DNA from: Anaerolineae bacterium
GTDB taxonomy: Bacteria; Chloroflexota; Anaerolineae; UBA4142
DNA length: 32,493 nt
Direction of reading: 5' to 3'
Assembly (NCBI GenBank): GCA_026417715.1
Contig: JAOACU010000003.1
Coordinates: 1-32,493, forward strand
Below the pieces are notes generated by a model, which made no database searches, was not told the DNA's origin, and saw only the letters and a list, made by a program, of their open reading frames with translations. A program made the position numbers and the translations under genes. This document shows, in pieces, positions 10,788 through 31,432 of the stretch. Numbering within the stretch: position 1 is the first letter of the stretch; every line of letters starts with the position of its first letter.

Positions 10788-10886
<99 letters not shown>

Positions 10887-10897
10887 TTAAAATCCTT

Positions 10898-10928
10898 TGC
10901 CACCCAAGATCGGGTGGCATTTTGTTTT
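10898..10928 (+). terminator. Intrinsic terminator / riboswitch expression platform
   Basis: The stem tgccaccc (10898-10905) pairs with gggtggca (10912-10919) around the loop aagatc. It is followed by ttttgtttt and lies between the aptamer and the cytX Shine-Dalgarno sequence (GGAGGTG). Confidence 0.8.
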
Positions 10929-10944
10929 AAGGTTGGAGGTGAGA

Positions 10945-15643: not shown

Positions 15644-15673
15644 CACGATTCGTTGATGCAAATTCATTGTTGG
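15613..15673. repeat. ACGAAT/ATTCGT word hairpin element (family B, copy 3, shorter)
   Basis: The sequence is gacgaatacaCAACGAATgaacacatcatagcacgATTCGTTGatgcaaattcattgttgg. It spans the ecfA stop codon and the ecfA-ecfT gap. Confidence 0.65.
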
Positions 15674-15682
15674 CGATCAGGA

Positions 15683-17061: not shown

Positions 17062-17868
17062 ATGAAACGAGCATTGACGATTGCAGGTTCGGATTCGGGC
17101 GGCGGCGCCGGCATCCAAGCCGACCTTAAAACCTTCGCCGCGCGCGGTGTGTTTGGGATGAGTGTGTTGACCGCGCTGACCGCGCAAAATACGTTGGGCG
17201 TGCAAGGCGTGCACGAAGTTCCACCCGATTTTATCGCGTTGCAGATTGATGCGGTTGTCAGCGATTTGGGAGTAGATGCCGTAAAAACCGGAATGCTCTC
17301 GAATGCCTCCATCATCGAGATCGTTGCCGCTAAAGTGCGCGAACATCACTTGGCGCCGCTCGTCGTGGACCCAGTGATGATCGCCAAGAGTGGCGCGCCG
17401 CTCTTGCGTGACGAGGCGCGCGAAGCATTGATTCGACAGTTGCTACCACTAGCAACGGTCGTCACCCCGAATCTGCACGAGGCGCGCGCGCTCAGCGGCA
17501 TAGACGTTACCACACTCGAAGAGATGCGTGATGCTGCGCGCGCGATTCATCGTCTTGGCGCGCGTTACGTCGTCATCAAAGGTGGACACTTGCCCGCAAC
17601 GATGGAAGCGATTGATGTGTTGTACGATGGCATTACCTTCGAGGAATTTCGCGCGCCGCGCATCGAAACCAAGAACACACATGGAACGGGATGCACGTTT
17701 GCCTCGGCGATTGCGGCTGAACTAGCCAAGGGCAATTCGGTGGCGCAAGCAGTTCGCATCGCCAAAGCGTATCTCACCGCGGTCTTGCAAGCATCGGCGA
17801 ATTTGTCACTCGGTCACGGTCACGGTCCGCTGAATCATATGGCAACCTTGATAGAACGTTCGACCTAA
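17062..17868 (+). CDS. thiD: Bifunctional hydroxymethylpyrimidine / phosphomethylpyrimidine kinase
   Basis: The blocks [44 protein letters not shown] and [13 protein letters not shown] match ThiD. A Shine-Dalgarno sequence (AAGGAG) lies 7 nt upstream. Confidence 0.92.
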
Positions 17869-17901
17869 TGCCTGACTTGAGCCCAAGATCGAAAGACAGT
17901 C

Positions 17902-17940
17902 GAGTGGCAAGCGCGTTTATGGCTTGCCACTCTTTGTCTT
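17902..17940 (+). terminator. Intrinsic terminator after thiD
   Basis: An 11-bp perfect stem forms between gagtggcaagc (17902-17912) and gcttgccactc (17922-17932). It is followed by tttgtctt. Confidence 0.7.
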
Positions 17941-18039
17941 GGGAAAAGTAAGATTTCCAAAAACCCCGTTTTGCCACATTTCTGCCCTCTGTGGGTCAAA
18001 ATGTTATGATATTGTTATCAATTCGTAACGCTTTGATGG

Positions 18040-18068
18040 TTTACAAATATCCGACTTTATGTTATACA
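18040..18068 (+). promoter_or_regulatory. Candidate sigma70-type promoter (TTTACA-17-TATACA) upstream of the BcsB-like gene
   Basis: TTTACA at 18040-18045 is separated by a 17-nt spacer from TATACA(AT) at 18063-18070. It lies in an unusually AT-rich 160-bp gap, 30 nt upstream of ATG 18100. Confidence 0.3.
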
Positions 18069-18099
18069 ATGACCAAAATGTGAGTTAAATGGTCGGAAT

Positions 18100-20253
18100 A
18101 TGTACAAAAGATTTTTGCTCGCGTGCAGTCTTGCTTTTGCGTTTGTGCTACTCGCCAATCTAGTTGCGCGCGGAGAAACCAACACGCGCACACTCACCTT
18201 TGCCGATTTGGGTTACCCGAAAGACGAAACGCTACACGGTGTTCGCGCAACGCGCGAATACGGTGTGCTGTTGCCGCAATCTTGGAATGTGCAAACAGCC
18301 ACCATCCTCGTACTGCGATTCAGTCACTCGCCAGCGTTACGTCCCAACTCTAGTCTGGCGGTGGATTGGAACGGCACACGCTTGACGAGCACACTGCTTA
18401 CAGCGGAGAATGCCAAAGACGGCGTCTTGCGTGCCGAAATTCCTGCCGCGTTGATGCGCACAGGTTACAACGTCTTGCGTCTTGAAGCGTATATGGGGAT
18501 TCAGGACGATTTTTGTTCCGATATTGACAATCCTGCGGTTTGGTTGACCGTGCATCATTCATCCTTCTTGCAAGTAAATTTCCTGACCAAGTCACCCGAA
18601 GCCGATTTGGGTACATTTCCCCTACCATTCATCGAACCCAGTTCACTCGTCACCAATACCGTAACGTTGGTGTTGCCCGATTCGCCGCGTCTCGCCGAAT
18701 TGACAGCGGCGGCAACGATCGGTGCCAAGTTGGGACAGTTGGCAGCGTGGCGACCGCTCCAATTCGATGTGCGCGCGGCATCTACTTTCGATTTGAATCA
18801 GAACAACGGTCACATCATCGTGATTGGCGCGCGCGAACGCTTGCCACGTACTCTCGACTTGCCCATCGTAAAAAAGTTAGGCACTGAAACACAATTGACC
18901 GATTGGCGCGGCGAGCCATTACCGCGCCACGCGGGCGTACTCTGGGAACAACTCACACCGCGTCGCGAGGCATTACTCCTCGTCGTCACCGGCGAAGACG
19001 ATACGGCGATGCTTACTGCCGCGCGCGCGCTTGCCAGCACACCAACGTACGCACAATTGAACGGGCCACTCGGCGTGGTGCTCCAAGTGCCACCGCCCAA
19101 AGGGAACGGTTCGATTGGACAAACGTTGACGCTGGAAGAGTTGGGGTATCGCGACATTACAGCGCAAGGTTCGCGCGAACAGACATTGAATTACGTGATT
19201 CCCTTGCCGATGGCATGGCAAATTCAAGAAGGCGCGACCTTGGATTTACACTTTGCGCATTCAGCCCTATTGGACACCAACAAGTCATCGTTGAACGTGC
19301 TGTTGAACGGAACACCTGTGGGGAGCATTCTACTCACAAGCAAAACCGCCAGCGATGGACGCGTCACGTTCACACTCCCCGCGCGCTTGTTCAAGATGGG
19401 CGAAAACACGTTGACGATTGTGAGCAACATCCAAGTCCCGCGTCCGACCAAAGACCCGACCGATTGTTTGAACACGTACTATCGCGAGGCGTGGCTGGTG
19501 GTCTATGCCGATTCGCGCTTGCGAATGCCCGGTGCACCCGCCAACTTGTCAGCGACGCTTGGCAACTATCCGCGCGCGTTCATCGGCGCGATGGACTTGT
19601 CTGATCTCACTTTCGTCGTCCCGCCCGAACCTAATCTCGCGGTTGCGCGCGCCGTAGCGTGGATCAGCGCACGACTCGGACGCTTTGCACAAGGCGAAAC
19701 CCTTGCCCCGCTGGTGGCGGACGCGCAAACACCAACTTTGACGCGCTATCAAATTATCGTGGGACGTCCTTCGCAAAACCCAGCGATTGCCAAACTGAAA
19801 GATGTGCTACCACAACCGTTCAAATCAAACAGTGACGAACCTGAACCCGTCGCGCAGGTGGCGCAAGTGTTACCACCGCGCGGCACCATCGGCTATGTGC
19901 AAGCCACCACGATAGACAAACAACCGCGCCTTGTGGTCACTGGCAACAACGACGAGGGACTGTTATGGGCAGCCGAGGCGTTGAGCGCGCCAGAACTCTT
20001 GGGCAAGTTGCGTGGCGATCTGGCGATTCTGAGTGCCGCCGCTTCGCTCACCACGCTCGAAGTGCGTACCAAAGACAATCCCACCGCGTTGGCTTTGGCA
20101 CAGCCAACCCCAACCACCAACGGCACATCAAGTATGCCGACATGGGTAATGGGTTTGACCATCGGATTGTTTCTCGTGACAGCAGTGATCCTGTTCTTGG
20201 TCGGTTGGCAATCGTGGATTGGTATGCGGATGCAAAGGCGAAGGAATAACTGA
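18100..20253 (+). CDS. BcsB-like (cellulose synthase regulatory subunit-like) periplasmic protein with C-terminal TM anchor
   Basis: It has an N-terminal signal peptide. Two repeats follow the BcsB pattern: TLTFADLGY..ETLHG....YGVLLP..W.....ILVLRFSHSPALRPNSSLAVDWNGTRL.S..L and TLTLEELGYRDITAQG...TLNYVIPLP..W....ATLDLHFAHSALLDTNKSSLNVLLNGTPVGSILL. The block FCSDIDNPAVWLTVHHSSFL is also present. A single C-terminal TM helix is WVMGLTIGLFLVTAVILFLVGW. Confidence 0.7.
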   Translation: MYKRFLLACSLAFAFVLLANLVARGETNTRTLTFADLGYPKDETLHGVRATREYGVLLPQSWNVQTATILVLRFSHSPALRPNSSLAVDWNGTRLTSTLLTAENAKDGVLRAEIPAALMRTGYNVLRLEAYMGIQDDFCSDIDNPAVWLTVHHSSFLQVNFLTKSPEADLGTFPLPFIEPSSLVTNTVTLVLPDSPRLAELTAAATIGAKLGQLAAWRPLQFDVRAASTFDLNQNNGHIIVIGARERLPRTLDLPIVKKLGTETQLTDWRGEPLPRHAGVLWEQLTPRREALLLVVTGEDDTAMLTAARALASTPTYAQLNGPLGVVLQVPPPKGNGSIGQTLTLEELGYRDITAQGSREQTLNYVIPLPMAWQIQEGATLDLHFAHSALLDTNKSSLNVLLNGTPVGSILLTSKTASDGRVTFTLPARLFKMGENTLTIVSNIQVPRPTKDPTDCLNTYYREAWLVVYADSRLRMPGAPANLSATLGNYPRAFIGAMDLSDLTFVVPPEPNLAVARAVAWISARLGRFAQGETLAPLVADAQTPTLTRYQIIVGRPSQNPAIAKLKDVLPQPFKSNSDEPEPVAQVAQVLPPRGTIGYVQATTIDKQPRLVVTGNNDEGLLWAAEALSAPELLGKLRGDLAILSAAASLTTLEVRTKDNPTALALAQPTPTTNGTSSMPTWVMGLTIGLFLVTAVILFLVGWQSWIGMRMQRRRNN

Positions 20254-20265
20254 CGTTACGCACAC

Positions 20266-20293
20266 GTAGGACAGGTTTGCCAACTTGTCCTAC
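20266..20293 (+). other. Intergenic hairpin (possible attenuator or weak terminator)
   Basis: The sequence gtaggacaggtt-tgcc-aacttgtcctac forms a 12-bp stem with one G-U pair. It is followed by atttcac, which is a weak U tract. Confidence 0.3.
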
Positions 20294-20338
20294 ATTTCAC
20301 ACCAGATTTTCTATCCTCTGCGTAAGGTGAGGGAATAT

Positions 20339-21526
20339 ATGAATGTCAAACAAGACCTTCAATTCAAATTGCTCGTGGCAACGTTGGGGGTCTGGCTTAT
20401 TCTGGGTTCACTAGTAATCGGCTGGGTGGACTCGACGTTTTATATGCTAGCGTTCGGTCTGCTCGCGCTAACGACCACGCTGACATTGATCTACTCATCG
20501 CGCTTACTCGATGTGGGAATCGTAATCGCAGGCACGCTCATTTTCGGTGTGGTGCAAGTGCTGGTGTACGGCTTCACTCCGCGTATCGTGTTTCCTGCCA
20601 TCGTTTGCCTTGTGGCGTTGAGTGGTGCAGCCGCATTAGGCACACTCGCCAATCGTCAATTTACACGCGTGAGCCAGCAATTGGAACAACAACATCGGTT
20701 GGTGGACGAGTTGCGTGTCTATGATCCCGATACCAACTTGTTGCGTTATCCGTACGCCTTGCAAACGCTCAAAAATGAGATTGCGCGCAGTCAACGGTAC
20801 AATCGTCCGCTGTGCGTGCTGTTTTTGCGCGTGAACGAACCGCCCGAGTGGATGCAACCTCAAGGTGAATTGGCAAAACGCGCGGCGTATCAACAAATCG
20901 CTGAACTTGTGCGTGGATCGCTACGCACCGTAGATGTGGCATTCTTCAACGCGACCAAGTTCGGTGCCATTCTGCCAGAGACCGATGCGGTAGGTAGTCG
21001 TCTTGTCGCTGAGCGACTCATCGAACGCATCGCGAACAAGATGCGCTTGGCTACCTATATCGGCATAGCCCATTTCCCCAGCGATGGAGTAACGGAAGAA
21101 GAACTGGTGCGCGGCGCCGAGGCTGCATTACAGTTGGCGTTGACGACAGGGCAACCTTTGGTTTTTTACGTGCAACTACGCCATGCCGTTCGTCCTGCCG
21201 CGCCCATCCAACCGTTAGATTTACCGCCAACATCTCAACCCTCGCCCCTCAACCACACCGGAATCGAATTGCACATTGCGGGATTGCGCGATCTGGCAAA
21301 TACCTTGCGCATCGAACAAGCCTTGCGCGATTACGTCGGCGCCGAGAATGTACGCACATTACGTTTTATGGATGGCACGCTCGTGCTCGAACTCAAACAC
21401 CCTCCCAGCGATTTGACGCAAAAACTTGCCGAACTCATTCCCTTGCCCATCGAACAACTCGCGCGTGAGGGTCGAACGATTCACGCGCGCGTGCAGGAGG
21501 CTAGCGTTGGAACCGCCGCGCACTAA
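20339..21526 (+). CDS. Membrane protein with degenerate (catalytically inactive) GGDEF domain retaining an RxxD I-site; PelD-like candidate c-di-GMP receptor
   Basis: About 5 N-terminal TM helices precede a GGDEF-fold pattern: DPDTNLLRY..(for D.LTgL.NR), LCVLFLRVN (for lallllDlD), LRTVDVAFFNATKFGAILPETD (for R..D.vaRyGGDEFaill..t), YIGIAHFP and AEAALQLALTTGQP. The GG(D/E)EF motif is replaced by NATKF (nt 20948-20962), while RTVD (20924-20935) is retained. The Shine-Dalgarno sequence AAGGTGAGGG lies upstream of ATG 20339. Confidence 0.7.
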   Translation: MNVKQDLQFKLLVATLGVWLILGSLVIGWVDSTFYMLAFGLLALTTTLTLIYSSRLLDVGIVIAGTLIFGVVQVLVYGFTPRIVFPAIVCLVALSGAAALGTLANRQFTRVSQQLEQQHRLVDELRVYDPDTNLLRYPYALQTLKNEIARSQRYNRPLCVLFLRVNEPPEWMQPQGELAKRAAYQQIAELVRGSLRTVDVAFFNATKFGAILPETDAVGSRLVAERLIERIANKMRLATYIGIAHFPSDGVTEEELVRGAEAALQLALTTGQPLVFYVQLRHAVRPAAPIQPLDLPPTSQPSPLNHTGIELHIAGLRDLANTLRIEQALRDYVGAENVRTLRFMDGTLVLELKHPPSDLTQKLAELIPLPIEQLAREGRTIHARVQEASVGTAAH

Positions 21527-21767
21527 CTGGTGGCTTGCACTGGTGATCGTCCTGCGCGTGATGATCTTTCTGGGTGTTTGGCTCGTTCTGTTTATGGGAA
21601 TATTTTTGGGCTATTTCACCGTGCCGTTAATTGTCCTTGCCGCGCTGACTTTGTTTTACGCCATCACCGATGCTGGCTTGGTGATTGCTCTCGTGCGTCA
21701 GCGTGCCCGTCAAGCGCGTCACACTTTTTTGCAAGCGCGCGATTCGGAATCTACCCAGAACACGTAA
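21507..21767 (+). CDS. Small hypothetical membrane protein (about 86 aa, 2-3 TM)
   Basis: AGGAGG at 21495-21500 lies 6 nt upstream of TTG 21507. The hydrophobic sequence WWLALVIVLRVMIFLGVWLVLFMGIFLGYFTVPLIVLAALTLFYAITDAGLVIALV is followed by a basic tail. It overlaps the upstream gene by 20 nt. I see no recognisable family. Confidence 0.35.
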   Translation: MEPPRTNWWLALVIVLRVMIFLGVWLVLFMGIFLGYFTVPLIVLAALTLFYAITDAGLVIALVRQRARQARHTFLQARDSESTQNT

Positions 21768-21817
21768 CTGATGTAAGTTTGCAAACTGGTACTACACAAC
21801 GGTATTAGACATCGCCT

Positions 21818-21883
21818 CAACGAATGGGCAACGAATAAACGAATGAGTACCGTGCAGATTCGTTTGTGTGTTCAATATTCGTT
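21818..21883. repeat. ACGAAT/ATTCGT word hairpin element (family B, copy 4)
   Basis: The sequence is CAACGAATgggcaacgaataaacgaatgagtaccgtgcagattcgtttgtgtgttcaatATTCGTT. It lies immediately upstream of the GT2 synthase gene. The ORF-track GTG start at 21866 falls inside it. Confidence 0.75.
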
Positions 21884-21946
21884 AAAGCGGATTTTCAAAA
21901 GCAAACCTCAACCTCTGTAGAAACTTTCTCTCCCAAAGCGTTCGTG

Positions 21947-24900
21947 ATGATGTACGACCATCCTGCGCCGTTCGTACGATTGAACGGCTTTGTGCCCACC
22001 TCTGCTGCACTCCGCGTACTTGCCGAATCGGTGGCGCGTCAATTCCTGATAGTGCCCCTGTGGCTGGAGCATACAACGCTTGTGGTGGCTTCGGCGCACG
22101 GTTTGGACAACGCCACGCTTCACACGCTTACCACAATCGTACGGCGTCCCCTGCGTGTGCTGCGCGCCACATATCCCGATGTGCGCGCCGCACTCGAGCG
22201 TTTTTATCGCGGCACAAGTCCGCGTCCATCCACGCCTTCACTTGAGCAAGCCCTGCTCCATCTTGGCTATCTCAACGCAGAGACTGTGGAGCAAGCACGC
22301 GCAGCATCGGCGAACCTTTCGCTTGCCCAAACCTGTCTGCAATCAGACTTGCTCACCGAAGACGAATTGATCGAAGCGCAAGGGTGGCAGTTCAACTTGC
22401 CACCTTTGCGTCTGCGCGGTTTGAGCACCCAGACATGTCTTGCGCCACTCATTCCTCTGGACATTGCACGCACGCAAAAAATTGTTCCGCTATGGTGGAT
22501 TCAAAACACCTTGATTGCTGGCATCACTGCGCCGAACGATGTGTCCGCACGCGTGGAACAATTTCCTTTTCCCTTGTGGCTCGCTGTATGTTCACCTACC
22601 GAGTGGAATCATCTTTACGAACGCACTTATCTCACTGGTTCCACGCGAGTCGGAGATGACGAGTCAGCAGTCGTCGAAGTGCTGTTACGCTACGGCTTGC
22701 TCGACTCCACGACGCTACATCTTGCGCGCGCGATCGCGCAGCAAACTCGGCGTCCTTTGCGCGAGGTGCTCATCTCGCGCGGTGTTTTGACCGCCCAACA
22801 ATGGCTAGAAGCGCGCGCCCATCATTGGGGCATACGCGCGGGTTACACCCCCACGCGTCGCAATGGCGATTCTGCACAACTCGCCGATCTTGTACCCGCT
22901 GCGCTGGCGCGCCAATGTGCCATCGTTCCACTTGAATACGATGCCAAGCGCGCGACACTTGTCGTTGGAATGCCGCACCCCAACGACGATGTATCCCGCC
23001 TCCTCGAAAACCTGACGCATCTACACATCGAGGCGCGCCTGCTCGATGAAGACACTGTGCACGCCGAGATGCAAAATCTGTATGGTGATGACACACCCCA
23101 GTTACCGTTGGCACCTTCTCTTGGCGATCTGTTGACAGGGCTAGGCATCGTCACACCGACCCAATGGCAACAAGCCGAAGCATCTCCCAAGCGTTTGATT
23201 GAATTGGGTTATCTCGACGAGTTCGACCTCACCACGATTCGCGCGTTGCAAACGGGCTTGCCCGCCACGCGTCTCACGCGCGCGCGTTTCGATGCTAATC
23301 TTGTGACGCGTGTTTCACCCGAACTCGCACAACGTCACCATTGCCTTCCTTGGATCATTCAAGATGGCACCGTTTGGGCAGTCATTGCCGATCCGTTCGA
23401 CACCGTCGGGTTGCAAATGCTCGAAGCCGCACTGGGTTCACCCGTGTATCCGATTCTTGCTCCGCGCCCGGCGATTGACGCGGTGATCGAACGCTTTTTT
23501 GGTGTGTCCACTCTGCGTTTGGATGACGCGACCCATTCCTTCATCGAGGCGATGATTCAGCGCGGTGTGCTCACGCATACCAGCGCGGCACGCGCGCGGC
23601 AACTCGTCGAACAAGGTGTGGCACTCGACCAAGCCATCTTGCAAGTCAGCACTCGATCAGCGCGCGATCTCACACGCACGTTCGCCGAGCATCTTGGCAT
23701 TGCTTGGGTGGATTTGCAATTGCGCGAAGAAACCACGCGCGTTTTCGATGCACTTGGACAATCCATCACGCGACGCCAAGCACACGACCCGGTGGACGCA
23801 ACCGTAGCGCGGCTGATAGATTTGGAAACGGCACGTCGCTTGAGCGCGCTGCCGATTGCGCGCACCGATGGCGCGCTCTTGGTCGCCTTTGCCAACCCGT
23901 TGTTCGACTCGGCGCGTCGTGAAATTGAATCTCTGCTCAAGACGCCCGTGCGTCCTGTCCTCGCGGCGCGTTCCGATTTGGACGAAGCCATTCAACGCGT
24001 GTTGGGTCATCAAAACATCGGCACGCGTCTCTTGCTGGCGGGTCTCATTTCGCGCGTGCAACTCAACGATGCTCTGGAATTGGCGCAACGGACTGGAGTG
24101 CGCTTGGGACGCGCGTTGATCACGCGAGGATACATTACACCAGAACAACTGGCGCAATTCCTTGCCGAGCAAGCCCATCTGCCGTTTTTCGATTTGCGTT
24201 CGGTCAAACTCGATGTCACTATGGCTCGTTGGATTGACGAAGCCACCGAGCGCGCGCTAGGCATTTTGCCGCTGGCACTCCACCAAGACGAATTGACGCT
24301 CGCGATGGTGGATCCGTTGAACGAAGAAGCCGTGCGTGTTGCCGCGCGCGTCACGGGCTATACGATTCGCCCCGTGTTGGTAAGCGAACAGGACTTGGAA
24401 GACGCGCTCGAACGCATCTACGGGAGCGAGTACTTGGGGCGCAGTGTGTCGGAACTGCTCGAACGCGCGCCAGAAGATTCGGCGTACTGGGTGTTGAGTC
24501 GCGGGCAAAAGATTGCCTTCGCGCTCATCGCGCTCGTCTCCGCGTTGTGGCTCATCACCGATTGGCGTGGGTACATCATTCTCCTCAACGCGTTTGCCAC
24601 CACATTCTACTTGGGTTTCTCGGCGTACAAATTTTATCTGGCGTATCGCGCCATCACGCATGAACTCGAAGTGCCTGTCTCGGATGAAGAAGTCGCCGCG
24701 CTCGATGCGCGCGACTTGCCTGTGTACACGATTCTCGTACCCGTGTACAAAGAAGCCGATGTGTTGCCCGATTTGTTGGAAGCGATCAGTAAACTCGACT
24801 ATCCACCAACGAAACTCGATGTCAAAGTGTTGATGGAAGCCGACGATACCGAGACGATTCAGGCGTTCGAGCGGATGAAGATGCCCGCACAGTTTCAGGG

Positions 24901-25870
24901 GATTGTGGTGCCAGTAGCACCGCCGCGCACCAAACCCAAGGCGTGCAACTATGGGCTGATTCACGCGCGCGGCGAATACGTTGTCATCTACGATGCCGAA
25001 GACTTGCCCGATCCCGATCAACTCAAGCGCGTTCTAGTCGCGTTCCGCAAATCGCCACCGAACGTGGTGTGCATCCAATCGAAACTGAATTACTACAATC
25101 GCAACCAAAACTTGTTGACCGCGTGGTTCACCGTCGAGTATTCGATGTGGTTCGACTTGTTCTTGCCGGGTTTGGATGCCAGCGGCGCACCGATTCCGCT
25201 CGGTGGCACCTCGAATCACTTTAAGCGCAGCGCGCTCATCGAAGCCGGCGCGTGGGACCCCTACAACGTGACCGAAGACGCGGACTTGGGAGTACGCATC
25301 TTCAAGCGTGGCTATCGCACTGCCATCGTAGATAGCACGACGTACGAAGAAGCCAACAGTGAAATTTACAACTGGATTCGTCAGCGTTCGCGTTGGATCA
25401 AGGGATACATTCAAACCTGGTTGGTGCATATGCGCCATCCACTTAAACTGTATCGTGAATTGGGATTCACGGCGTTCTGGAGTTTTCAGTTCGTCGTAGG
25501 CGGCACGTTCTTCGCCGCGCTCTTGAATCCGATTTACTGGTTCTTGACGACGTTGTGGTTTCTCACGCATTGGGAACTGATCCAAATCGTCTTTCCTGGC
25601 ATTGTGTTTTATTCGGGCGCATTGTGTTTGTACTTGGGTAACTTTGCCTTCACGTACTTGAACGTGGCGGGCGCAATGCGACGCGGCTATTACGATATGG
25701 TGAAATATGCGTTACTCAGTCCCTTGTATTGGGGCTTGATGAGCGTGGGCGCGTGGAAGGGCTTGTGGCAACTGGTGACCAAACCGTACTTTTGGGAAAA
25801 GACCAAGCACGGTTTGTTCCAGGGCGAACCCAGCACCGAGCGCGCTAACAAGTTGCGAGATTTGGTGTGA
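21947..25870 (+). CDS. Multi-(T2SSE_N/MshEN-like) domain protein fused to a membrane-embedded processive family-2 glycosyltransferase (cellulose/chitin/PNAG-synthase-like)
   Basis: About six N-terminal repeats have the GspE-N pattern (..a..l.vlPl....g.l.va..dP.d.......l.......v.pvla....l..al.r.yg). The last repeat is preceded by a perfect MshEN-type 24-aa motif, RLGRALITRGYITPEQLAQFLAEQ (nt 24101-24172). After the TM helices come the GT2 motifs VPVYKE, YDAED (DxD, nt 24992-25003), TED and QRSRW (nt 25382-25396), then C-terminal TM helices. No PilZ domain is visible. The start is uncertain (GTG 21944, ATG 21947 or ATG 21950). Confidence 0.85.
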   Translation: MMYDHPAPFVRLNGFVPTSAALRVLAESVARQFLIVPLWLEHTTLVVASAHGLDNATLHTLTTIVRRPLRVLRATYPDVRAALERFYRGTSPRPSTPSLEQALLHLGYLNAETVEQARAASANLSLAQTCLQSDLLTEDELIEAQGWQFNLPPLRLRGLSTQTCLAPLIPLDIARTQKIVPLWWIQNTLIAGITAPNDVSARVEQFPFPLWLAVCSPTEWNHLYERTYLTGSTRVGDDESAVVEVLLRYGLLDSTTLHLARAIAQQTRRPLREVLISRGVLTAQQWLEARAHHWGIRAGYTPTRRNGDSAQLADLVPAALARQCAIVPLEYDAKRATLVVGMPHPNDDVSRLLENLTHLHIEARLLDEDTVHAEMQNLYGDDTPQLPLAPSLGDLLTGLGIVTPTQWQQAEASPKRLIELGYLDEFDLTTIRALQTGLPATRLTRARFDANLVTRVSPELAQRHHCLPWIIQDGTVWAVIADPFDTVGLQMLEAALGSPVYPILAPRPAIDAVIERFFGVSTLRLDDATHSFIEAMIQRGVLTHTSAARARQLVEQGVALDQAILQVSTRSARDLTRTFAEHLGIAWVDLQLREETTRVFDALGQSITRRQAHDPVDATVARLIDLETARRLSALPIARTDGALLVAFANPLFDSARREIESLLKTPVRPVLAARSDLDEAIQRVLGHQNIGTRLLLAGLISRVQLNDALELAQRTGVRLGRALITRGYITPEQLAQFLAEQAHLPFFDLRSVKLDVTMARWIDEATERALGILPLALHQDELTLAMVDPLNEEAVRVAARVTGYTIRPVLVSEQDLEDALERIYGSEYLGRSVSELLERAPEDSAYWVLSRGQKIAFALIALVSALWLITDWRGYIILLNAFATTFYLGFSAYKFYLAYRAITHELEVPVSDEEVAALDARDLPVYTILVPVYKEADVLPDLLEAISKLDYPPTKLDVKVLMEADDTETIQAFERMKMPAQFQGIVVPVAPPRTKPKACNYGLIHARGEYVVIYDAEDLPDPDQLKRVLVAFRKSPPNVVCIQSKLNYYNRNQNLLTAWFTVEYSMWFDLFLPGLDASGAPIPLGGTSNHFKRSALIEAGAWDPYNVTEDADLGVRIFKRGYRTAIVDSTTYEEANSEIYNWIRQRSRWIKGYIQTWLVHMRHPLKLYRELGFTAFWSFQFVVGGTFFAALLNPIYWFLTTLWFLTHWELIQIVFPGIVFYSGALCLYLGNFAFTYLNVAGAMRRGYYDMVKYALLSPLYWGLMSVGAWKGLWQLVTKPYFWEKTKHGLFQGEPSTERANKLRDLV

Positions 25871-27510
25871 GACGCACAACGCTGAACGAAGGTCCTCCGC
25901 CAGCGCCGATTGCCAAGCCAACACTAGGACGCTACGAGGGATGGATCATTTTCGCGCTGGCGTGCACGTTGAACTTGATAACAGCGTGGTGGTTGGCGTA
26001 CGTGTGGTCTGTAGGCAACAGTGATGCCTTGTCACGCACGGCAAACGCGTTCTATGTCCTCTTCTCGCGCGATCCACACCTCGCAGCAATCGGCTTTGTG
26101 TGGCCCCCCCTACCCAGTTTGATGCAACTGCCGATTTTGCTCTTCACACGTTGGCTTGGTCAGCCCCAGTTTAGCGGTCCGATTCTATCCAGCGTGTCTG
26201 GTGCCGTCGCGCTAGTCATTCTCAATCTAATCCTTGCTCAACTGAATGTATCTCGCGCGTTGCGTTGGGGCTTGCTGGTGCTCACCCAACTCCATCCAAG
26301 TTTCTGGTACCTTGCCGCTAGCGGTCTGGCTGAAATCATCTTGCTATGTTGTCTGCTCTTGACCATCTGGGGATACTTGCTGATGCCTGAACGCGTACGT
26401 TCGTGGGCGATTGCAGGATTGGGCTTGGCATTAGGATTCTTTGTACGCTATGAAGCCCTAGCAATGATCGCGGGTATCGTGTTAGCGATTGCGATACAAC
26501 GCTGGCCCCCCTGGCGCAATTGGGAAACCGCGCTGGAAGGACGTTTGTTGTTCGTGCTATCACCGCCGGCTTATGCTATCGGACTATGGTTGTATTTTAA
26601 CTGGATGTTTACGAGCGATCCGCTCTTCTTCCAGCGCAGTGCGTATAGTCTGGCAGTGGCCCCTGATGTGGCGCGCAACGTGGGCTTGGCACATCCCTTG
26701 TTTGCCGCGATGGGCAATTGGATCAAGACGGGCGAATACGCGCTCACGCGCTTGGCACAACAAAACTTGGCATTTCTTGTCGCGATGCCGGTGATTCTTG
26801 GGCTTGCCCTTCGACGAAGCAAAATGCCATTGCTCGGTTTGTTGGTGTTGCTAGCGAGCGTGCCCTTGTTTACGGCTTATCAGGTGTATTCGGGTACGCT
26901 AGCCACGTGGATGCGGTACTGGTTTTACGCCACACCGTTTGCCGCGATACTCATCGGAGCGTGGCATGGCGCGAGCACAGGAACACGTCGTTGGGTGGTC
27001 ACGCTCGGACTTTTCGGCCTATTCGTTGCCAGCACACCTGTGACTTTGCTCGCGATGCGTGATCCGTACGCCAGTTTGGATGAGCAACGCTTGAGCGCGT
27101 ATCTGACGGATTCCGCGCAACAAATCAAATTGCGTGAACAAGATGGCTATTGGAAAGACATTCAGGACGCGCATAAACTAGCGCGTCGCGTGTATGAACG
27201 CGCGGGCGAACGTCGAGTGATGGTGGATACTGCGCGCGGCTATGCGATGATTATGCAGTATCCTCAACCAGAACGACTGGTCATCACTACGGATCGCGAC
27301 TTTGTGACAATCTTGGAAAATCCACCAGCGTTTGTAGATTATGTGCTGGTGCTCGCGCCCGAGACGAGTGGCGCCGGCTTTAATGTCATCGCTGCGCGTT
27401 ATCCTCACTTGTTCGAGAACGGGACACCTTGGGCAAAGTTAGAGGAAGATTTCACCGATACCTATCGTCACTGGCGTTTGTTTCGTGTAACGCGTCTATC
27501 TTCACAGTGA
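25867..27510 (+). CDS. Polytopic membrane protein, GT-C fold (ArnT/PMT_2-like) glycosyltransferase candidate, paralog 1
   Basis: The GTG start overlaps the synthase stop (GTGA). There are about 11-12 TM helices. The first loop, ..GNSDALSRTANAFYVLFSRDPHLAAIGFVWPPLPSLMQLP.., resembles the Asp-containing first periplasmic loop of the ArnT/PMT_2 family. A C-terminal soluble domain of about 130 aa follows. Confidence 0.55.
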   Translation: MRRTTLNEGPPPAPIAKPTLGRYEGWIIFALACTLNLITAWWLAYVWSVGNSDALSRTANAFYVLFSRDPHLAAIGFVWPPLPSLMQLPILLFTRWLGQPQFSGPILSSVSGAVALVILNLILAQLNVSRALRWGLLVLTQLHPSFWYLAASGLAEIILLCCLLLTIWGYLLMPERVRSWAIAGLGLALGFFVRYEALAMIAGIVLAIAIQRWPPWRNWETALEGRLLFVLSPPAYAIGLWLYFNWMFTSDPLFFQRSAYSLAVAPDVARNVGLAHPLFAAMGNWIKTGEYALTRLAQQNLAFLVAMPVILGLALRRSKMPLLGLLVLLASVPLFTAYQVYSGTLATWMRYWFYATPFAAILIGAWHGASTGTRRWVVTLGLFGLFVASTPVTLLAMRDPYASLDEQRLSAYLTDSAQQIKLREQDGYWKDIQDAHKLARRVYERAGERRVMVDTARGYAMIMQYPQPERLVITTDRDFVTILENPPAFVDYVLVLAPETSGAGFNVIAARYPHLFENGTPWAKLEEDFTDTYRHWRLFRVTRLSSQ

Positions 27511-27511
27511 T

Positions 27512-29098
27512 ATGCTGCCTAGAAAATTTTTCTCCGCATCACGTTTCATCTTCTTCTCCACTTTTATCCTCTACGCCGCGCTGGGCTGGATAGGCGCGTT
27601 TGTGTTGCAAACGTACAACTACGACGGGATTGCGCGCATCGCTCAAGCATTCAGCGTGTTCTCTAGTCGCGACCCGCATCTTGCCGCGATTGGCTTTGTA
27701 TGGATGCCGCTCCCAGTCCTCTCCGACTTGCCGCTGGTGTGGTTGCTCAAACCCTTCGGTTTGGTGCTGTGGGCGGGACCGCTAATGAGCGCGTTCTACA
27801 CCGCGCTCGCACTTGCCGCGCTGTACGATTTGTTGGGAGATTTTGAATTACCGCGCGTCTGGCGCGTGGTGTGGGTGCTGGGACTAGGTGCGCATCCACT
27901 CATTGTGCACAACGGCACAATGGGACTTTCCGAAGCACCGCTACTCGCGTGTTTGTTTCTGGCGTTGCGCGGCTTTATCGCCTGGGATCGCGAGAACAAG
28001 AGTTGGGGAATCCTGTGGGGAGGCATTTGGAGTGCGCTGGCAGTCTTTTGTCGCTATGAAGCGATGGCGTGGGTGGGCGTGACGACGCTCGCGCTGGTTT
28101 GGCGCTGGTGGCTCGATCCGTCGCGACATCAAGCGCGCGCGCTCCAAGCCAACATTCTGGCATACACGATGCCACCACTCTACGCGCTCGGTGGTTGGGT
28201 GTTGGTCAACTGGTTGATTATGAAAAATCCGATTTACTTTCTCGTTGGACCCGGTTCCACTGCCACAACGCCCGACACCGCTCAAGCCGTAGGACCAAGC
28301 CATCCGTTTGCGTACGCGCAAAATTCCGTGAGCGGTTCGGCTCTGTTGTTGTCGCGACAAATCGCTGACCTATCTCCTTTGCTGGCGTTGGCGACGTTAC
28401 TGCTGATCGTTCTCGTACTGTGGAAAAAAGCGTGGGGCGACCTGAGTTACCTTGCACTCGGTTGGTCTATTCTGGGTTTCACATTTTTTACTGCGTGGCG
28501 CGGCTTGTTGCCACCGTTCACCCGTTATTTCTTCTGGATTGTGCCTGCCGGCGTCATCATTGCCGCGACGGCGTATCGTTGCGCGCACAAGCGCTGGACG
28601 CGCGCCCTGACCCTTGCGCTAATGACCGTCGCGCTCTGGGCGCCGTTCACGTGGCTGATTCCACGCGCACTCGAACGTTTGCCCGATCCATATCCGTTAC
28701 GCATCGTTGGCGCGTTCTTGTTACCCCCCGAAGTGACTGACCATCGTCAGGTGCGCGGACAATTGGACGAATTCAAGATGATTGCGGCGTATCTCAATGC
28801 GCAACATCCGCCGCGCACGACACTCCTTGATGCGGCAATCGGTTCACCCTTGCTGTTTTTCCTCACCCGACCTGAAACGCTGGTGTTAACGACTGATCGC
28901 GATTTCAAACAAATTCTATCCTCACCGATTGGGCGAGTGGATCAGATACTCGTGCCTTACCCCAGTTTCGACGCGCGAGGACGTTCGGAAATTCTCAAAC
29001 TCTATCCCGCCATTTACGACGGGCAGGCGTGGACGCAGTTGGTGCACGAGTTTCCTGGACCCAACGCCTGGCGTCTGTACCGCATCGTATCACCCTAA
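27512..29098 (+). CDS. Polytopic membrane protein, GT-C fold (ArnT/PMT_2-like) glycosyltransferase candidate, paralog 2
   Basis: It starts 1 nt after the upstream stop. It shares ..YDGIARIAQAFSVFSSRDPHLAAIGFVWMPLPVLSDLP.., ..FCRYEAMAW.. and the C-terminal ..LVLTTDRDF..IL..P....D.ILV.. blocks with paralog 1. Confidence 0.55.
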   Translation: MLPRKFFSASRFIFFSTFILYAALGWIGAFVLQTYNYDGIARIAQAFSVFSSRDPHLAAIGFVWMPLPVLSDLPLVWLLKPFGLVLWAGPLMSAFYTALALAALYDLLGDFELPRVWRVVWVLGLGAHPLIVHNGTMGLSEAPLLACLFLALRGFIAWDRENKSWGILWGGIWSALAVFCRYEAMAWVGVTTLALVWRWWLDPSRHQARALQANILAYTMPPLYALGGWVLVNWLIMKNPIYFLVGPGSTATTPDTAQAVGPSHPFAYAQNSVSGSALLLSRQIADLSPLLALATLLLIVLVLWKKAWGDLSYLALGWSILGFTFFTAWRGLLPPFTRYFFWIVPAGVIIAATAYRCAHKRWTRALTLALMTVALWAPFTWLIPRALERLPDPYPLRIVGAFLLPPEVTDHRQVRGQLDEFKMIAAYLNAQHPPRTTLLDAAIGSPLLFFLTRPETLVLTTDRDFKQILSSPIGRVDQILVPYPSFDARGRSEILKLYPAIYDGQAWTQLVHEFPGPNAWRLYRIVSP

Positions 29099-29103
29099 AA
29101 TTT

Positions 29104-29133
29104 AACAGCGGACGAGGTACCTCGTCCGCTGTT
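29104..29133. terminator. Bidirectional intrinsic terminator candidate
   Basis: A perfect 30-nt palindrome, aacagcggacgaggt/acctcgtccgctgtt, would give a ~13-bp stem. It is flanked by aaaattt on the left and gagttttatcttgtt on the right. It sits between convergent gene blocks. Confidence 0.75.
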
Positions 29134-29151
29134 GAGTTTTATCTTGTTCAG

Positions 29152-29180
29152 ACCTCACAGGTCTCGGAGACCTGTGAGGT
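29152..29180. repeat. Perfect palindrome ACCTCACAGGTCTC-g-GAGACCTGTGAGGT (family G)
   Basis: Two 14-nt arms are perfectly complementary, with a nested palindrome gacctcacaggtc. It lies between the terminator and the 3' end of the MBL hydrolase gene. Confidence 0.7.
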
Positions 29181-29206
29181 TTAGAAACCTCTTTCTCCAA
29201 GAGCGT

Positions 29207-29968
29207 TTAGAACCTGAGCCGCATCAGGTCTTTACCCACAATGACGGTGCCGGTGAACGTACTCTGCGCGGCGGTACGCCACGCGCGCACATCGCATTCA
29301 GGGGGCAAATGAACCAACACCAACTTTTTCACATCGGCGCGCGTGGCTTGTTCGCCGGCTTGGCGCGCGCTGGTATGTCCATTACTATCGGTATCGAGTG
29401 TTGTTGCTTCGTGAACCAGAATGTACGAACCGCGCGCCAGATTCACCACATCGTCCAATACTTCGGTATCGCTCGAATACGTGATCGCGCGGCGCGAAGC
29501 ACGCGCTTCGATGCGTACTGCAATTGTCGGGATGATGTGACGCGTGGGAGCGGAAGAGACCGAAAATTCGGCAGTGACCAAATGCGCATTGTGGTATCGT
29601 TGGGGAACACGGTGGAATTCAATCGGAAAAAAGTTTTTAAATCGTTCCCACTCGAACGCACGCATCAACGCGCGCGTGGCGCGCAGTGTGTCGGCTAGTC
29701 CATAGATGGACAGTGGCTTTTTTCTGCCTGCCAACCACATACCCAATAGAAGAACCGAGAGCCCGTAGATGTGATCGGGATGATGATGGGTGAGGATGAT
29801 GTGATCAATTTGATCGAGCGCGACGCCGGCTTTGAGCAAACGTTGTACGGGACTGCCCGCGCAATCAATTAGAATGGCTTCGCGCTCGCCCTTGACGACC
29901 AAATAGGTATGCTCGCGCGTGGCGTCGCTGAGTGCAGCACCTGTGCCTAGCAAAATGAGTTGAGCCAT
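29207..29968 (-). CDS. MBL-fold metallo-hydrolase (RNase Z/BN-like)
   Basis: The N-terminus is LILLGTGAA. The metal-binding motif is ILTHHHPDHIYG (HxHxDH). Later blocks include ..LVHEAT.. and ..GHTSARQAG... Confidence 0.75.
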   Translation of the reverse strand: MAQLILLGTGAALSDATREHTYLVVKGEREAILIDCAGSPVQRLLKAGVALDQIDHIILTHHHPDHIYGLSVLLLGMWLAGRKKPLSIYGLADTLRATRALMRAFEWERFKNFFPIEFHRVPQRYHNAHLVTAEFSVSSAPTRHIIPTIAVRIEARASRRAITYSSDTEVLDDVVNLARGSYILVHEATTLDTDSNGHTSARQAGEQATRADVKKLVLVHLPPECDVRAWRTAAQSTFTGTVIVGKDLMRLRF

Positions 29969-30013
29969 CGTATCTCCTGTGAGAACGCGACTTGTGTGCG
30001 CGGTCGCCAGTTC

Positions 30014-31432
30014 TCATCGTCCAAACATCCAGATCAAAATCTGCGGCGTGATGTTCACTTCGATCACGGCGGCGATGAACAACAGTGGTATCACCACAAA
30101 CAAGACAATTTTAACAAAATCTGCCAACGCGCGCAAGAGGTTCTCTCCGGCGGTGAAACCTGCCGGCGGTGCGATGATAGACGCGCCGGCGCGCAACGCG
30201 AACGCCGTCATCAAGATCACAGCAGGTATTTCGATGATCCCGTGTGGTAACAGTGCCGCGAGTAAAAACACATAGCCCGTCACACCAAACCATTGTGCTT
30301 CACCCCATATAAAACCGAGCACCCCCATCGTCGCTACGATCGGCAGACACGCCAGTGTGCCAAACGAGAACAAACCGAGAAACGCTGCCACCAATAACGA
30401 ACGGATATTGTATGCCCAAATGGCATCCACCGTAAGGCGCGGGAGTACTGTCCCTTGTAATGCAGGTTCCTGACGCAACGCTTCGGGATTGAATTCGATC
30501 TTATCAATCAAGTCGGGAGGCAAAGGGTATTGTAGCGCGACTATCCAACCAACAAAAGCGGCAAAGCCCATAATCGCCACGGTGGTCGCGATTGCCAGAT
30601 AGTTCTCACGCAACAGACGTGGCACATCGTCACGATAAATGCGCACTAGGGAGAAACGCGTACCGGCAAAATGATACCAAAATGTCCGCGCGATGGAAGC
30701 CAAGTTGAGTTCATCCACCTCGCGCCCTAACAATTGTTCACGATTGAATGTACGAATGCCTGTGCGAATCAACAGTGCATTGGCAACCACCAGCGCGGCA
30801 AGAATATACCACAAGACATCGTACTGTCCCCAAAAGAGCAAAATGCTCTCGCCTTGCAACAGAAACGCCATTGGGATAATGATGAACGATGCAAGCAAGT
30901 TTGCCGCGCGCACACTCGTCGTGTGACTCGAAACGACCACCGCGCCACTCACCATCACGAATGCTTTCATCGTCGTTAGGACAACGATTTGTAACAAGAC
31001 CAGCCACTCGGGAGTGTATCGGATAGATATGTATAAACCGACAAGGTATGCCGTGATGCCTAGATAACTTGCGAGTACGGGAGGAATGGTTGCAGAGAAC
31101 AATTTGCCAAAATACAACGAGGCATCCGAAATCGGTGTGTCGAGTAGCGGCTCTAAACTGTTGCGTTCTTTCTCACCGACGAATGTTTCTAGCGCGATGA
31201 TGAGTGAAAATGAAATCGGAAAGAAAGCCACGATCATTACGGCAAAGGGCACCAAGCGCAAGGGGATGATCGTGGCGTTATACTCTTCGACGAACCGAAT
31301 CGCGAGTTGCGTCGAAGCATTCATAATCCAAGGAAAGATGAGCGTGAGAATCACAATCGGCGCGACGATGCGCCAATCGCGTAACGAGTCGCGCACTTCG
31401 CGACGGGTGATAATCAAAGCATCGTCTAGCAT
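30014..31432 (-). CDS. ABC-2 type transporter permease fused to a C-terminal SpoIIM/DUF95-like membrane domain
   Basis: The N-terminal half begins ..REVRDSLRDWRIVAPIVILTLIFPWIMN.. and has 6 TM helices, matching the ABC-2/NosY-like permease pattern. The C-terminal half (nt about 30014-30670) contains ..IWAYNIRSLLVAAFLGLFSFGTLACLPIVATMGVLGF.. and ..LLPHGIIEIPAVILMTAFALRAG.., the SpoIIM-type PHGxxExP signature. Confidence 0.65.
   Translation of the reverse strand: MLDDALIITRREVRDSLRDWRIVAPIVILTLIFPWIMNASTQLAIRFVEEYNATIIPLRLVPFAVMIVAFFPISFSLIIALETFVGEKERNSLEPLLDTPISDASLYFGKLFSATIPPVLASYLGITAYLVGLYISIRYTPEWLVLLQIVVLTTMKAFVMVSGAVVVSSHTTSVRAANLLASFIIIPMAFLLQGESILLFWGQYDVLWYILAALVVANALLIRTGIRTFNREQLLGREVDELNLASIARTFWYHFAGTRFSLVRIYRDDVPRLLRENYLAIATTVAIMGFAAFVGWIVALQYPLPPDLIDKIEFNPEALRQEPALQGTVLPRLTVDAIWAYNIRSLLVAAFLGLFSFGTLACLPIVATMGVLGFIWGEAQWFGVTGYVFLLAALLPHGIIEIPAVILMTAFALRAGASIIAPPAGFTAGENLLRALADFVKIVLFVVIPLLFIAAVIEVNITPQILIWMFGR

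Follow-up and report, generated by a model that had tools for sequence, protein, structure and literature searches.

The six genes at positions 18100–29098 of contig JAOACU010000003.1 (Anaerolineae bacterium, phylum Chloroflexota, assembly GCA_026417715.1) form an operon which probably encodes a synthase-dependent exopolysaccharide (EPS) machine of the Xag/Sfz type. Its synthase would be gated by cyclic di-GMP (c-di-GMP) and its polymer decorated outside the membrane by glycosyltransferases of the GT-C fold; we put the probability of this reading at about 60%. In what follows, the window is the whole stretch of 32,493 nucleotides that was analysed. The operon combines a BcsB-like protein, a membrane protein whose GGDEF domain is degenerate, a small membrane protein, a glycosyltransferase of family 2 (GT2) preceded by an array of MshEN domains, and two paralogous GT-C-fold proteins (Table 1). 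Based on gene names, published descriptions and synteny, it is best assigned to the Xag/Sfz family, as a representative from Chloroflexota to which a receptor of the Pss/Yda type has been added. This kind of system is already known: the family is named (xag, sfz) and widespread, and the operon is not a wholly new machine. c-di-GMP signalling has its main output in synthase-dependent EPS systems (cellulose, poly-N-acetylglucosamine (PNAG), alginate, Pel, Pss, Nfr), on which many biofilms are based.

The six open reading frames (ORFs) run in one direction and are tightly packed, with the boundaries and the three junctions given in a preliminary description of this DNA. The GGDEF and small genes overlap by 20 nt (21507–21526), the synthase stop and the start of GT-C paralog 1 share the letters GTGA (25867–25870), and a single nucleotide at 27511 separates the two GT-C genes.

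Relatives at 42–94% identity have conserved this gene set, so that the arrangement is not due to chance; the preliminary description had proposed a survey of this kind, and conserved neighbourhoods are what it returned. The full-length relatives (74–94% identity, on metagenomic contigs, including loci L001 and L002 at 74%) keep all six genes. At 42–53% identity (L003–L005, L007, L008, L012 and L016), the order BcsB–GGDEF–(small protein)–synthase is kept, and a single GT-C gene lies downstream or else belongs to a divergent block that also contains a GT2 and a protein of the LPG_synthase_TM family; membrane proteins of this family occur in L003 and L004.

The synthase and its predicted c-di-GMP receptors

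The synthase counts 1307 amino acids (aa) from the ATG at 21947, a start position common to its homologues, and consists of six MshEN-like units, two transmembrane helices, a GT2 domain of the processive type and a C-terminal transmembrane bundle. Pfam detects MshEN in five stretches (9.4e-70), and a family-specific profile built from the membrane-proximal unit resolves six, as had been proposed from the sequence. The first is a half unit which contains the MshEN_C part only (aa 4–97), and it is followed by full units at aa 95–234, 240–385, 389–524, 529–690 and 686–835. The best match by sequence in the PDB is the Thermus PilF ATPase, in three stretches.

In this array of 5.5 units, only the membrane-proximal unit 6 has an intact pair of c-di-GMP-binding motifs. 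The published motif, defined by Wang et al. 2016, has 24 residues, RLGxx(L/V/I)(L/V/I)xxG(L/V/I)(L/V/I)xxxxLxxxLxxQ, and occurs as a tandem pair. The pair of unit 6 spans 53 residues (aa 690–742), in which NIGTRLLLAGLISRVQLNDALELA is joined by a 5-residue linker to RLGRALITRGYITPEQLAQFLAEQ. The second motif fits the strict published form, and so does the first apart from positions 1 and 24; the unit scores 80 bits with the NCBIfam model NF053729 (c-di-GMP_motif), for a cut-off of 38, and its key motif residues are invariant across nine homologues. Neither the strict nor a relaxed 24-residue motif is matched in units 1–5, and the R-h-G start of both half-motifs is missing from these units in every long-form homologue. 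Between the window protein and its 47%-identical homologues P0006 and P0007, units 1–5 are 25–38% identical, for 74–75% in the GT2 domain. Units 1–5 seem to have been unable to bind the ligand already before the split of the long-form lineages and have nonetheless been retained, which suggests that they serve as a conserved cytoplasmic scaffold, as a spacer or as a partner-binding array.

The C-terminal 470 residues of the synthase are a membrane GT2 (Pfam Glyco_trans_2_3, 4.6e-26), and neither Pfam nor NCBIfam detects a PilZ domain in the protein, which bears out the proposal of a processive GT2 lacking PilZ. It carries a D motif, a DxD-type motif, TED at 1109 and QRSRW at 1146; both TED and QxxRW are intact, and neither varies. 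A conserved terminal loop, FWEKTxHG (FWEKT at 1282), follows. In an AlphaFold2 (AF2) model of aa 686–1307 (54-sequence alignment, mean predicted local distance difference test (pLDDT) 90.9), two transmembrane helices precede the GT domain and three long helices follow it. The fold of the model matches BcsA first, then hyaluronan synthases, the archaeal mannosyltransferase PcManGT and chitin synthases. The first 140 residues of the model match MshE bound to c-di-GMP (TM score 0.84, root-mean-square deviation 2.3 Å), and one long helix joins unit 6 to the first transmembrane helix.

The BcsB-like protein is recognised by Pfam BcsB in two stretches (E = 1.3e-74) and matches E. coli BcsB chains of the PDB at 1.6e-16, in agreement with the assignment in the preliminary description. 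Hydropathy indicates a signal-like N-terminal segment and a C-terminal transmembrane anchor (aa 678–709). The protein scores below every NCBIfam BcsB equivalog cut-off, at best 131 bits for a cut-off of 750.

The next protein has about four transmembrane helices (aa 25–124, from hydropathy) and a GGDEF domain which passes the Pfam cut-off (3.9e-6). In HMMER alignments to solved GGDEF domains, RTVD aligns with the RxxD of the inhibitory site (I-site) and NATKF with GG(D/E)EF, as expected for the transmembrane, degenerate GGDEF protein with RxxD that had been described. With NATKF for GGDEF, the domain is predicted to be catalytically dead. An alignment of 12 sequences (that of the window and 11 distinct Chloroflexota orthologues, from a cluster of 12 homologues of which two are identical) shows the R and the D kept and the signature degenerate in all of them. 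GG[DE]EF is likewise absent from all 19 strong homologues of this protein, which come from three phyla and include those of Gaiellales and Paenibacillus/Cohnella loci.

The function of this protein had been likened to that of PelD, an analogy that has to be given up. Pfam finds no GAF domain in it, so that its architecture is that of YdaK and PssE and not the transmembrane, GAF and degenerate-GGDEF arrangement of PelD; besides, the synthase is a GT2, whereas PelF belongs to glycosyltransferase family 4 (GT4). The ATG at 20339 is a likelier start of the GGDEF gene, since the relatives begin at the equivalent position. As a side observation, the protein has a C-terminal extension of about 110 residues (aa ~300–413) which matches no family; it is common to L001, L008 and L016 and missing from most orthologues, which have 280–300 aa.

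From sequence and hydropathy, the 86-aa small protein is a hairpin of two transmembrane helices. Two other starts were considered for its gene: an ORF at 21530–21808 and a longer version starting at 21426 were both dropped in favour of the start at 21507 after comparison with homologues.

These parts suggest the following mechanism. The GT2 core would polymerise a sugar from a nucleotide donor and thread the chain through its own transmembrane bundle, which the small protein may complete to five helices, as PgaD does in the case of PgaC. The BcsB-like protein would receive the chain outside the membrane. Binding of c-di-GMP to unit 6 would free the active site and start synthesis, as in NfrB and by analogy with the role of PilZ in BcsA; gating may be the role of the FWEKTxHG loop. 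A second c-di-GMP gate may be provided by the I-site of the GGDEF protein, by analogy with PssE and YdaK. Last, the GT-C paralogs would add side-chain sugars from polyprenyl-phosphate donors to the emerging polymer, giving a branched product; the donor sugar may be mannose or another hexose, as hinted by the ManC-like and GtrB-like genes that recur in relatives.

The GT-C-fold partner and the spread of the family

The two GT-C-fold proteins are 29% identical and have all the family-invariant residues in common. No Pfam family, PMT and PMT_2 included, matches either of them; paralog 1 has a weak match to the NCBIfam LA_3751/LA_3752 putative glycosyltransferases, and the best hit of a PDB profile search is Pmt1 at E = 0.33. 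The assignment, which had been made from the sequence, is supported by structure prediction. An AF2 model of paralog 2 (35 sequences, pLDDT 90.2, predicted TM score (pTM) 0.91) has the N-terminal multi-helix membrane module, the long first outer loop and the C-terminal extracytoplasmic domain that define the GT-C fold. The top 37 PDB matches of Foldseek are all GT-C enzymes (STT3/OST, ArnT, DPY19, ALG9, PglB, PMT, AftB, EmbB), with TM scores of 0.31–0.58, or 0.43–0.58 for the top 19. Some homologues of the GT-C partner carry Pfam PMT (PF02366), PMT_2 (PF13231) or a fused GtrA.

Both paralogs contain the motifs SRDPH, GL(S/A)E and RYE, of which SRDPH lies in the first outer loop. D54 (in SRDPH), E141 (in GLSE) and E183 (in RYE) are present in both and are candidate catalytic acids as judged from the alignment. 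E141 is kept in 22 of 23 partners from Chloroflexota and E183 in 21; in the group of Bacillota and other phyla, the counts are 22 and 24 of 26. The R42 and R181 positions are strongly conserved in the same two groups.

The family is broad. A search of a 50%-identity library with unit 6 and the GT2 core (aa 686–1307) as the query returns 2,690 representatives at E ≤ 1e-30, and a census in which one genome per species was scanned finds at least 594 genomes with a relative of the synthase. The family extends over Chloroflexota, Actinomycetota, Bacillota, Aquificota and Proteobacteria. Among the matches listed, the best are from metagenome-assembled genomes (MAGs) of Chloroflexota (Anaerolineae and allies), about 1300 aa long and with six units; this long form (~1220–1345 aa) makes up about 23 of the best 150 representatives. 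The synthases of Gaiellales have three MshEN units, those of Solirubrobacterales and Nocardioides half a unit and one full unit, and those of Aquificota and of a Thiobacillus MAG one unit. In Bacillota (Paenibacillus, Cohnella, Clostridium, Sporolactobacillus, Desulforamulus, Sulfobacillus), one full unit follows one or two extra MshEN_N bundles.

The genes beside the synthase were counted in 84 related loci. A GT-C-like protein is encoded in 81 of them, in several phyla, usually by the next gene downstream, which often overlaps the synthase gene. No other partner of these synthases is as conserved as the GT-C proteins, which might have been regarded as an add-on. A small membrane ORF, homologous to that of the window or equally placed just upstream of the synthase, is found in 37–47 loci (Chloroflexota, Actinomycetota, some Bacillota), BcsB in 23 and a degenerate GGDEF protein in 19. 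A polyprenyl-phosphate sugar synthase like GtrB or ArnC (PDB 5ekp at 1e-67, and the PgfS and ArnC models) is encoded in 19 loci, and a ManC-like nucleotidyltransferase in 11. In the protein P0311, the GT2 synthase and a GT-C-like protein are naturally fused (hhalign 99.1%, E = 1.7e-18). The counts and the fusion indicate that the core of the family is the synthase and its GT-C-fold partner, to which BcsB and the GGDEF receptor are often, but not always, added.

The C-terminal extension of P0205 was considered as a second synthase–GT-C fusion and rejected (hhalign probability 7%). The representative library also contains giant fusion proteins of 1290–1610 aa (P0244, P0252, P0270, P0226, P0262, P0277). 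They consist of a GtrB/DPM1-like GT2 in some cases, an XagB-like synthase without MshEN, a polytopic membrane domain of about 450 aa and, judging by eye, a C-terminal GT4-like domain, and have the look of a Rosetta stone of the pathway.

One locus, L085, lies on the conjugative plasmid pEF60063-1 of Geobacillus stearothermophilus (CP128455.1, 3591–10328) and has the order ManC-like, BcsB, MshEN-GT2, GT-C; PGAP names the GT-C counterpart "glycosyltransferase family 39 protein". Since this module sits amid transposase and recombinase genes on a conjugative plasmid, the system is horizontally mobile. Separately, the Actinomycetota loci L017–L054, most of which are without BcsB, recurrently encode a lipoprotein of the PBP_like_2 family, together with two secreted proteins of about 370 and 450 aa with no family match; the conserved acidic residues are gone from about half of their GT-C partners.

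Relation to named systems and alternative readings

The operon had been presented as matching none of the bcs, pel, pga, psl and alg layouts, but the claim of novelty is overstated, since the pss/yda layout, which had been left out of that comparison, the xagBCD/sfz layout and the MshEN–Glyco_trans_2_3 architecture have all been published. The literature on xag and sfz (Tao 2010; PMC3609779; PMC4643136; PMC8250860) is used here as far as its accessible sections go, and what we say of these two systems is limited to those sections. In Xanthomonas, the xagABCD operon is required for the biofilm matrix and is repressed via the pathway of the diffusible signal factor (DSF) and RpfG. Kato et al. 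2015 (PMC4643136) described a cluster of genes for BcsB-like, XagB-like, XagC-like and XagD-like proteins as specific to stalk-forming iron oxidisers, and this bcsB-xagBCD-type cluster was renamed sfz1–6 (sfb) by Koeksoy et al. 2021 (PMC8250860). According to the latter, Sfz1 is BcsB-like, Sfz2 is a T2SSE_N domain with a GT2 carrying TED and QxxRW, and Sfz3 is a protein of about 500 aa with no assigned function.

The window operon matches this layout in several respects. Its synthase has the domains and motifs of Sfz2, a BcsB-like gene lies 5' of it as Sfz1 does (the order is the same in L075 and L085), and a membrane protein of about 500 aa is encoded next downstream, in the position and with the size of Sfz3 and XagC. 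A further point of likeness would be that xag is tied to c-di-GMP regulation and has a biofilm phenotype. Many members of the synthase family are labelled "glycosyltransferase XagB" by JGI; the names of cluster members for ten short-form representatives were uninformative as to orthology with Xag, Pss or Yda proteins. In L075, from a Thiobacillus MAG, genes for a BcsB-like protein, the synthase and a membrane protein stand in the order of sfz1–3, and the third is homologous to the window GT-C paralogs. The differences are that the window synthase has 5.5 MshEN units rather than one, that a degenerate-GGDEF membrane protein and a small two-helix protein are added, that there are two GT-C paralogs, and that 18100–29140 contains no XagD/Sfz4-like hydrolase, no XagA and no outer-membrane component. 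In the accessible sections of the xag/sfz papers, XagC and Sfz3 figure as hypothetical proteins or are given no function; their putative counterpart in the window has the GT-C fold.

The receptor part of the operon resembles Listeria pssA–E and B. subtilis ydaJKLMN (PMC4125290, PMC5422440), in which a PilZ-less GT2 and a BcsB-like protein are likewise encoded together with a membrane-bound degenerate-GGDEF receptor. The RxxD I-site of PssE and YdaK binds c-di-GMP and is essential for EPS production (PMC4125290, PMC5422440). The window shares with these operons the processive GT2 without PilZ, the BcsB-like protein and the RxxD-containing membrane protein, the latter with a similar size in most orthologues and about four transmembrane helices. 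This likeness is judged by published descriptions. As differences, these papers (PMC4125290, PMC5422440) describe neither an MshEN domain for PssC and YdaM nor a GT-C gene in the pss or yda operons, and these operons have extra genes, for a glycosyl hydrolase (PssZ/YdaJ) and for PssA/PssB or YdaL; the window operon contains no glycosyl-hydrolase gene.

NfrB of E. coli is the only characterised MshEN-GT2: it has DxD, TED and QxxRW, is allosterically activated by c-di-GMP bound to its own MshEN and makes a polymer of N-acetylmannosamine (ManNAc) (PMC8669469). Like the window synthase, it combines GT2 and MshEN in one polypeptide (BLASTP identity 28% for unit 6 and 24% for GT2), but in the reverse order, GT2–transmembrane region–MshEN, and with a single MshEN. 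The NfrB equivalog model NF008411 scores 108 bits on the window synthase, for a cut-off of 1170, and over the MshEN part only. The partners differ too: NfrA, an outer-membrane protein with TPR and beta-barrel, and the periplasmic YbcH for NfrB; BcsB, GGDEF and GT-C proteins in the window.

The domain architecture itself was catalogued by Wang et al. 2016, whose Supplementary Table 4 contains both "Glyco_trans_2_3 - MshEN" (NfrB) and "MshEN - Glyco_trans_2_3" (Rsph17029_0522; Actinobacteria, Firmicutes, Proteobacteria), as well as ATPase arrays of up to (MshEN)4, in the form (MshEN)2-4-T2SSE. The ATPases of type IV pili and type II secretion, such as Thermus PilF, likewise carry MshEN (GSPII) units in tandem ahead of their effector domain; the window synthase differs in having a membrane GT2 as effector and six units, of which the last alone is predicted to bind c-di-GMP. 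MshEN-GT2 is not mentioned in the c-di-GMP papers on Leptospira and C. difficile.

Three-component systems of extracytoplasmic glycosylation (a polyprenyl-phosphate sugar synthase of the GtrB/ArnC/CsbB type, a flippase and a GT-C enzyme, as in Gtr O-antigen modification, ArnT or YfhO) share the GT-C fold with the window operon, and a GtrB/ArnC-like GT2 stands beside the GT-C partner in the 19 related loci counted above. They differ from it in that the GT-C is here paired with a BcsA-like synthase and not with an O-antigen, teichoic-acid or lipid A pathway, and in that neither a lipid-sugar synthase nor a flippase is encoded in the window.

Several observations weigh against the proposed assignment. 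The link to XagB and XagC of Xanthomonas rests on JGI names, published similarity statements and synteny, and, in the accessible sections, Xag is known from mutant phenotypes only and sfz from comparative genomics only. BcsB is missing from most actinobacterial loci. In the alignments to solved GGDEF domains, the RxxD lies four residues ahead of the degenerate signature instead of the canonical five, which is also a difference from Pss/Yda, and 3 of the 12 aligned sequences have an imperfect spacing, so that c-di-GMP binding by the I-site stays putative. The window contains no GtrB-like or ManC gene, which means that the supply of a donor is not encoded by the operon. The acidic residue of the first outer loop is only partly conserved in the GT-C family, and E141 and E183 are missing in many actinobacterial partners, including those of Nocardioides; the conserved role of the GT-C partner might therefore be non-catalytic.

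The last points lead to an alternative, which we consider unlikely, in which the GT-C proteins are structural or terminal components: a platform for translocation or assembly, or a ligase that anchors the polymer to an acceptor in the envelope. It would account for the loss of E141 and E183, for an outer-loop aspartate that is not universal and for an operon that encodes no lipid-sugar donor synthase. A GT-C partner that is more constant than BcsB (81 against 23 loci), whose gene is often translationally coupled to that of the synthase and fused to it once, would also be expected of a stoichiometric subunit. Yet the acidic residues and R42/R181 are strongly conserved in Chloroflexota and in the group of Bacillota and other phyla, and the recurrent GtrB/ArnC-like and ManC-like neighbours are typical of a GT-C donor pathway that functions. 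The polymers of BcsA-like synthases are not lipid-linked, and a ligase of the WaaL kind would thus be without its usual substrate.

It is improbable that the operon is a divergent system for cellulose or another simple beta-glucan, in which MshEN replaces PilZ and an unbranched beta-1,4-glucan is made with BcsB. BcsB is otherwise tied to cellulose synthases, and the GT2 core matches BcsA best, in sequence (PDB, 1.3e-16) and in fold (Foldseek, 1.4e-14); its best NCBIfam match is CelA (7.7e-22). However, the scores lie far below the equivalog cut-offs, with 77 bits against 699 for CelA (TIGR03030) and a similar shortfall for BcsB, and PgaC, the XrtG-associated glycosyltransferase and hyaluronan synthases match nearly as well, all at sub-threshold levels. 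It follows that the composition of the polymer is not predictable from these matches. PssD of Listeria is a BcsB-like protein that serves a polymer other than cellulose; the Pss EPS is a chain of beta-1,4-ManNAc with alpha-1,6-galactose branches. Contrary to Bcs systems, the operon contains no PilZ, no BcsZ (glycoside hydrolase family 8) and no BcsC (TPR-porin), and the associations with GT-C, GtrB-like and ManC genes favour a heteropolymer.

That the GT2 is a lipid or primer glycosyltransferase, and the operon a lipid or protein glycosylation pathway completed by GT-C enzymes, is very improbable: an xagB-like gene has been auto-annotated as "monoglucosyldiacylglycerol synthase" (quoted in the accessible part of PMC4643136), PcManGT, a non-polymerising enzyme with a minimal cellulose-synthase-like fold, matches at 5e-12 and GT-C enzymes commonly glycosylate proteins or lipids, but TED, QxxRW and FWEKTxHG are invariant and typical of processive, chain-translocating GT2s, the top fold matches (BcsA and hyaluronan synthases) cover the GT domain and the transmembrane regions, a BcsB-like partner would have no role in lipid glycosylation, and xagB mutants are described as having lost the biofilm matrix.

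The reading as a c-di-GMP-gated EPS machine of the Xag/Sfz type may be taken one step further, tentatively, to a hybrid pathway, not recognised before, in which a BcsA-like synthase gated by c-di-GMP extrudes the backbone, GT-C enzymes branch it with sugars from polyprenyl phosphate, and the output of the Chloroflexota versions depends on two receptors, while the five ligand-blind units are a scaffold which places or oligomerises the machine. If true, this would assign a function to XagC and Sfz3 in the biofilms of Xanthomonas and the stalks of iron oxidisers. The GT-C fold and the frequent lipid-sugar donor neighbours suggest a concrete, testable function for XagC and Sfz3, and a route by which a system with a single synthase may produce a branched polymer. 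The window version may be regarded as a natural experiment in signal integration, with one intact and five degenerate MshEN units beside a putative I-site receptor in a single operon.

With respect to the accessible sections of the literature, three features seem to be new: that the XagC/Sfz3-type partner has a GT-C fold and is coupled to the synthase almost universally, fusion included; an array of 5.5 MshEN units on a glycosyltransferase, with a single unit predicted to be competent; and the presence in one operon of a MshEN receptor and an I-site receptor, both predicted.

Operon borders and neighbouring genes

Table 1. Features of the operon, with positions in the window and the basis of each assignment.
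Feature	Positions	Strand	Basis
BcsB-like gene (717 aa)	18100–20253	+	Pfam BcsB
Degenerate-GGDEF membrane protein gene	20285–21526	+	Pfam GGDEF, alignments to solved GGDEF domains
Small protein gene (86 aa), two transmembrane helices	21507–21767	+	Sequence, hydropathy
Synthase gene (1307 aa), MshEN array and GT2	21947–25870	+	Pfam, NCBIfam, AF2
MshEN-like units 1–5 of the synthase	21956–24016	+	Family-specific profile
Predicted c-di-GMP-binding motif pair of MshEN unit 6	24014–24172	+	NF053729, regular expression
GT-C-fold paralog 1 gene (547 aa)	25867–27510	+	29% identity to paralog 2, shared motifs
GT-C-fold paralog 2 gene (528 aa)	27512–29098	+	AF2 and Foldseek
Strong hairpin with 20-bp stem, then T-rich stretch	29097–29140		Terminator scan

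An AT-rich spacer of 230 nt precedes the BcsB-like gene. On the other side, the operon likely ends at the predicted hairpin, which was found by a scan limited to consensus matching and lies between the last GT-C gene and the convergent gene for a hydrolase of the metallo-beta-lactamase (MBL) fold (29207–29968, minus strand). The operon is thus flanked on its 3' side by the MBL hydrolase, and on its 5' side by a thiamine-salvage block whose last gene ends at 17868. An ORF at 29132–29698 (188 aa) was considered as a seventh gene and rejected: it matches no family, is antisense to the MBL hydrolase gene and lies past the terminator. Rfam detects neither a c-di-GMP riboswitch nor another RNA element 5' of the operon, apart from the thiamine pyrophosphate (TPP) riboswitch at 10787–10897. 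In a promoter scan of 17500–30200, matches to sigma-70-like promoters are rarer than in shuffled sequence, and the scan is hence uninformative.

Between the small gene and the synthase gene there is an untranslated gap of 180 nt (21768–21946), where the same two genes are just 6 nt apart in L001, a 74%-identical relative. It may be that the gap contains an internal promoter or an RNA element; Rfam found none of the latter there.

The TPP riboswitch (plus strand, RF00059, 77 bits) is directly 5' of a transporter of the cytosine/purine permease family (10897–12345). The thiamine-salvage block adjoining the EPS operon comprises thiM (12263–13144), thiW (13251–13745), the ATPase of an energy-coupling factor (ECF) transporter (13976–15643), a CbiQ-type T component (15653–16342), thiE (16285–16986) and thiD (17062–17868).

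Elsewhere in the window, two tandem paralogs on the plus strand (1530–3203 and 3227–4894; 557 and 555 aa) combine a cyclic-nucleotide-binding (cNMP-binding) domain with a patatin-like phospholipase. The second overlaps the gene for a GAF-HisKA_3 histidine kinase (4891–6147), which is followed by a gene for a 717-aa protein with weak TPR matches only (6169–8322). The genes at 1530–8322 may form a lipase module regulated by cyclic nucleotides. On the minus strand, 8268–9953 encodes an ELP3-like radical SAM and GNAT protein (561 aa); this gene overlaps weaker ORFs of the plus strand, at 8580–9155 and at the start of a methyltransferase ORF (9339–10649), so that the gene calls need care in this region. 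Last, also on the minus strand, 30014–31432 codes for an unusual protein of 472 aa in which an ABC-2 permease is fused to a SpoIIM-like domain, downstream of the gene for its ABC ATPase (31507–32424).

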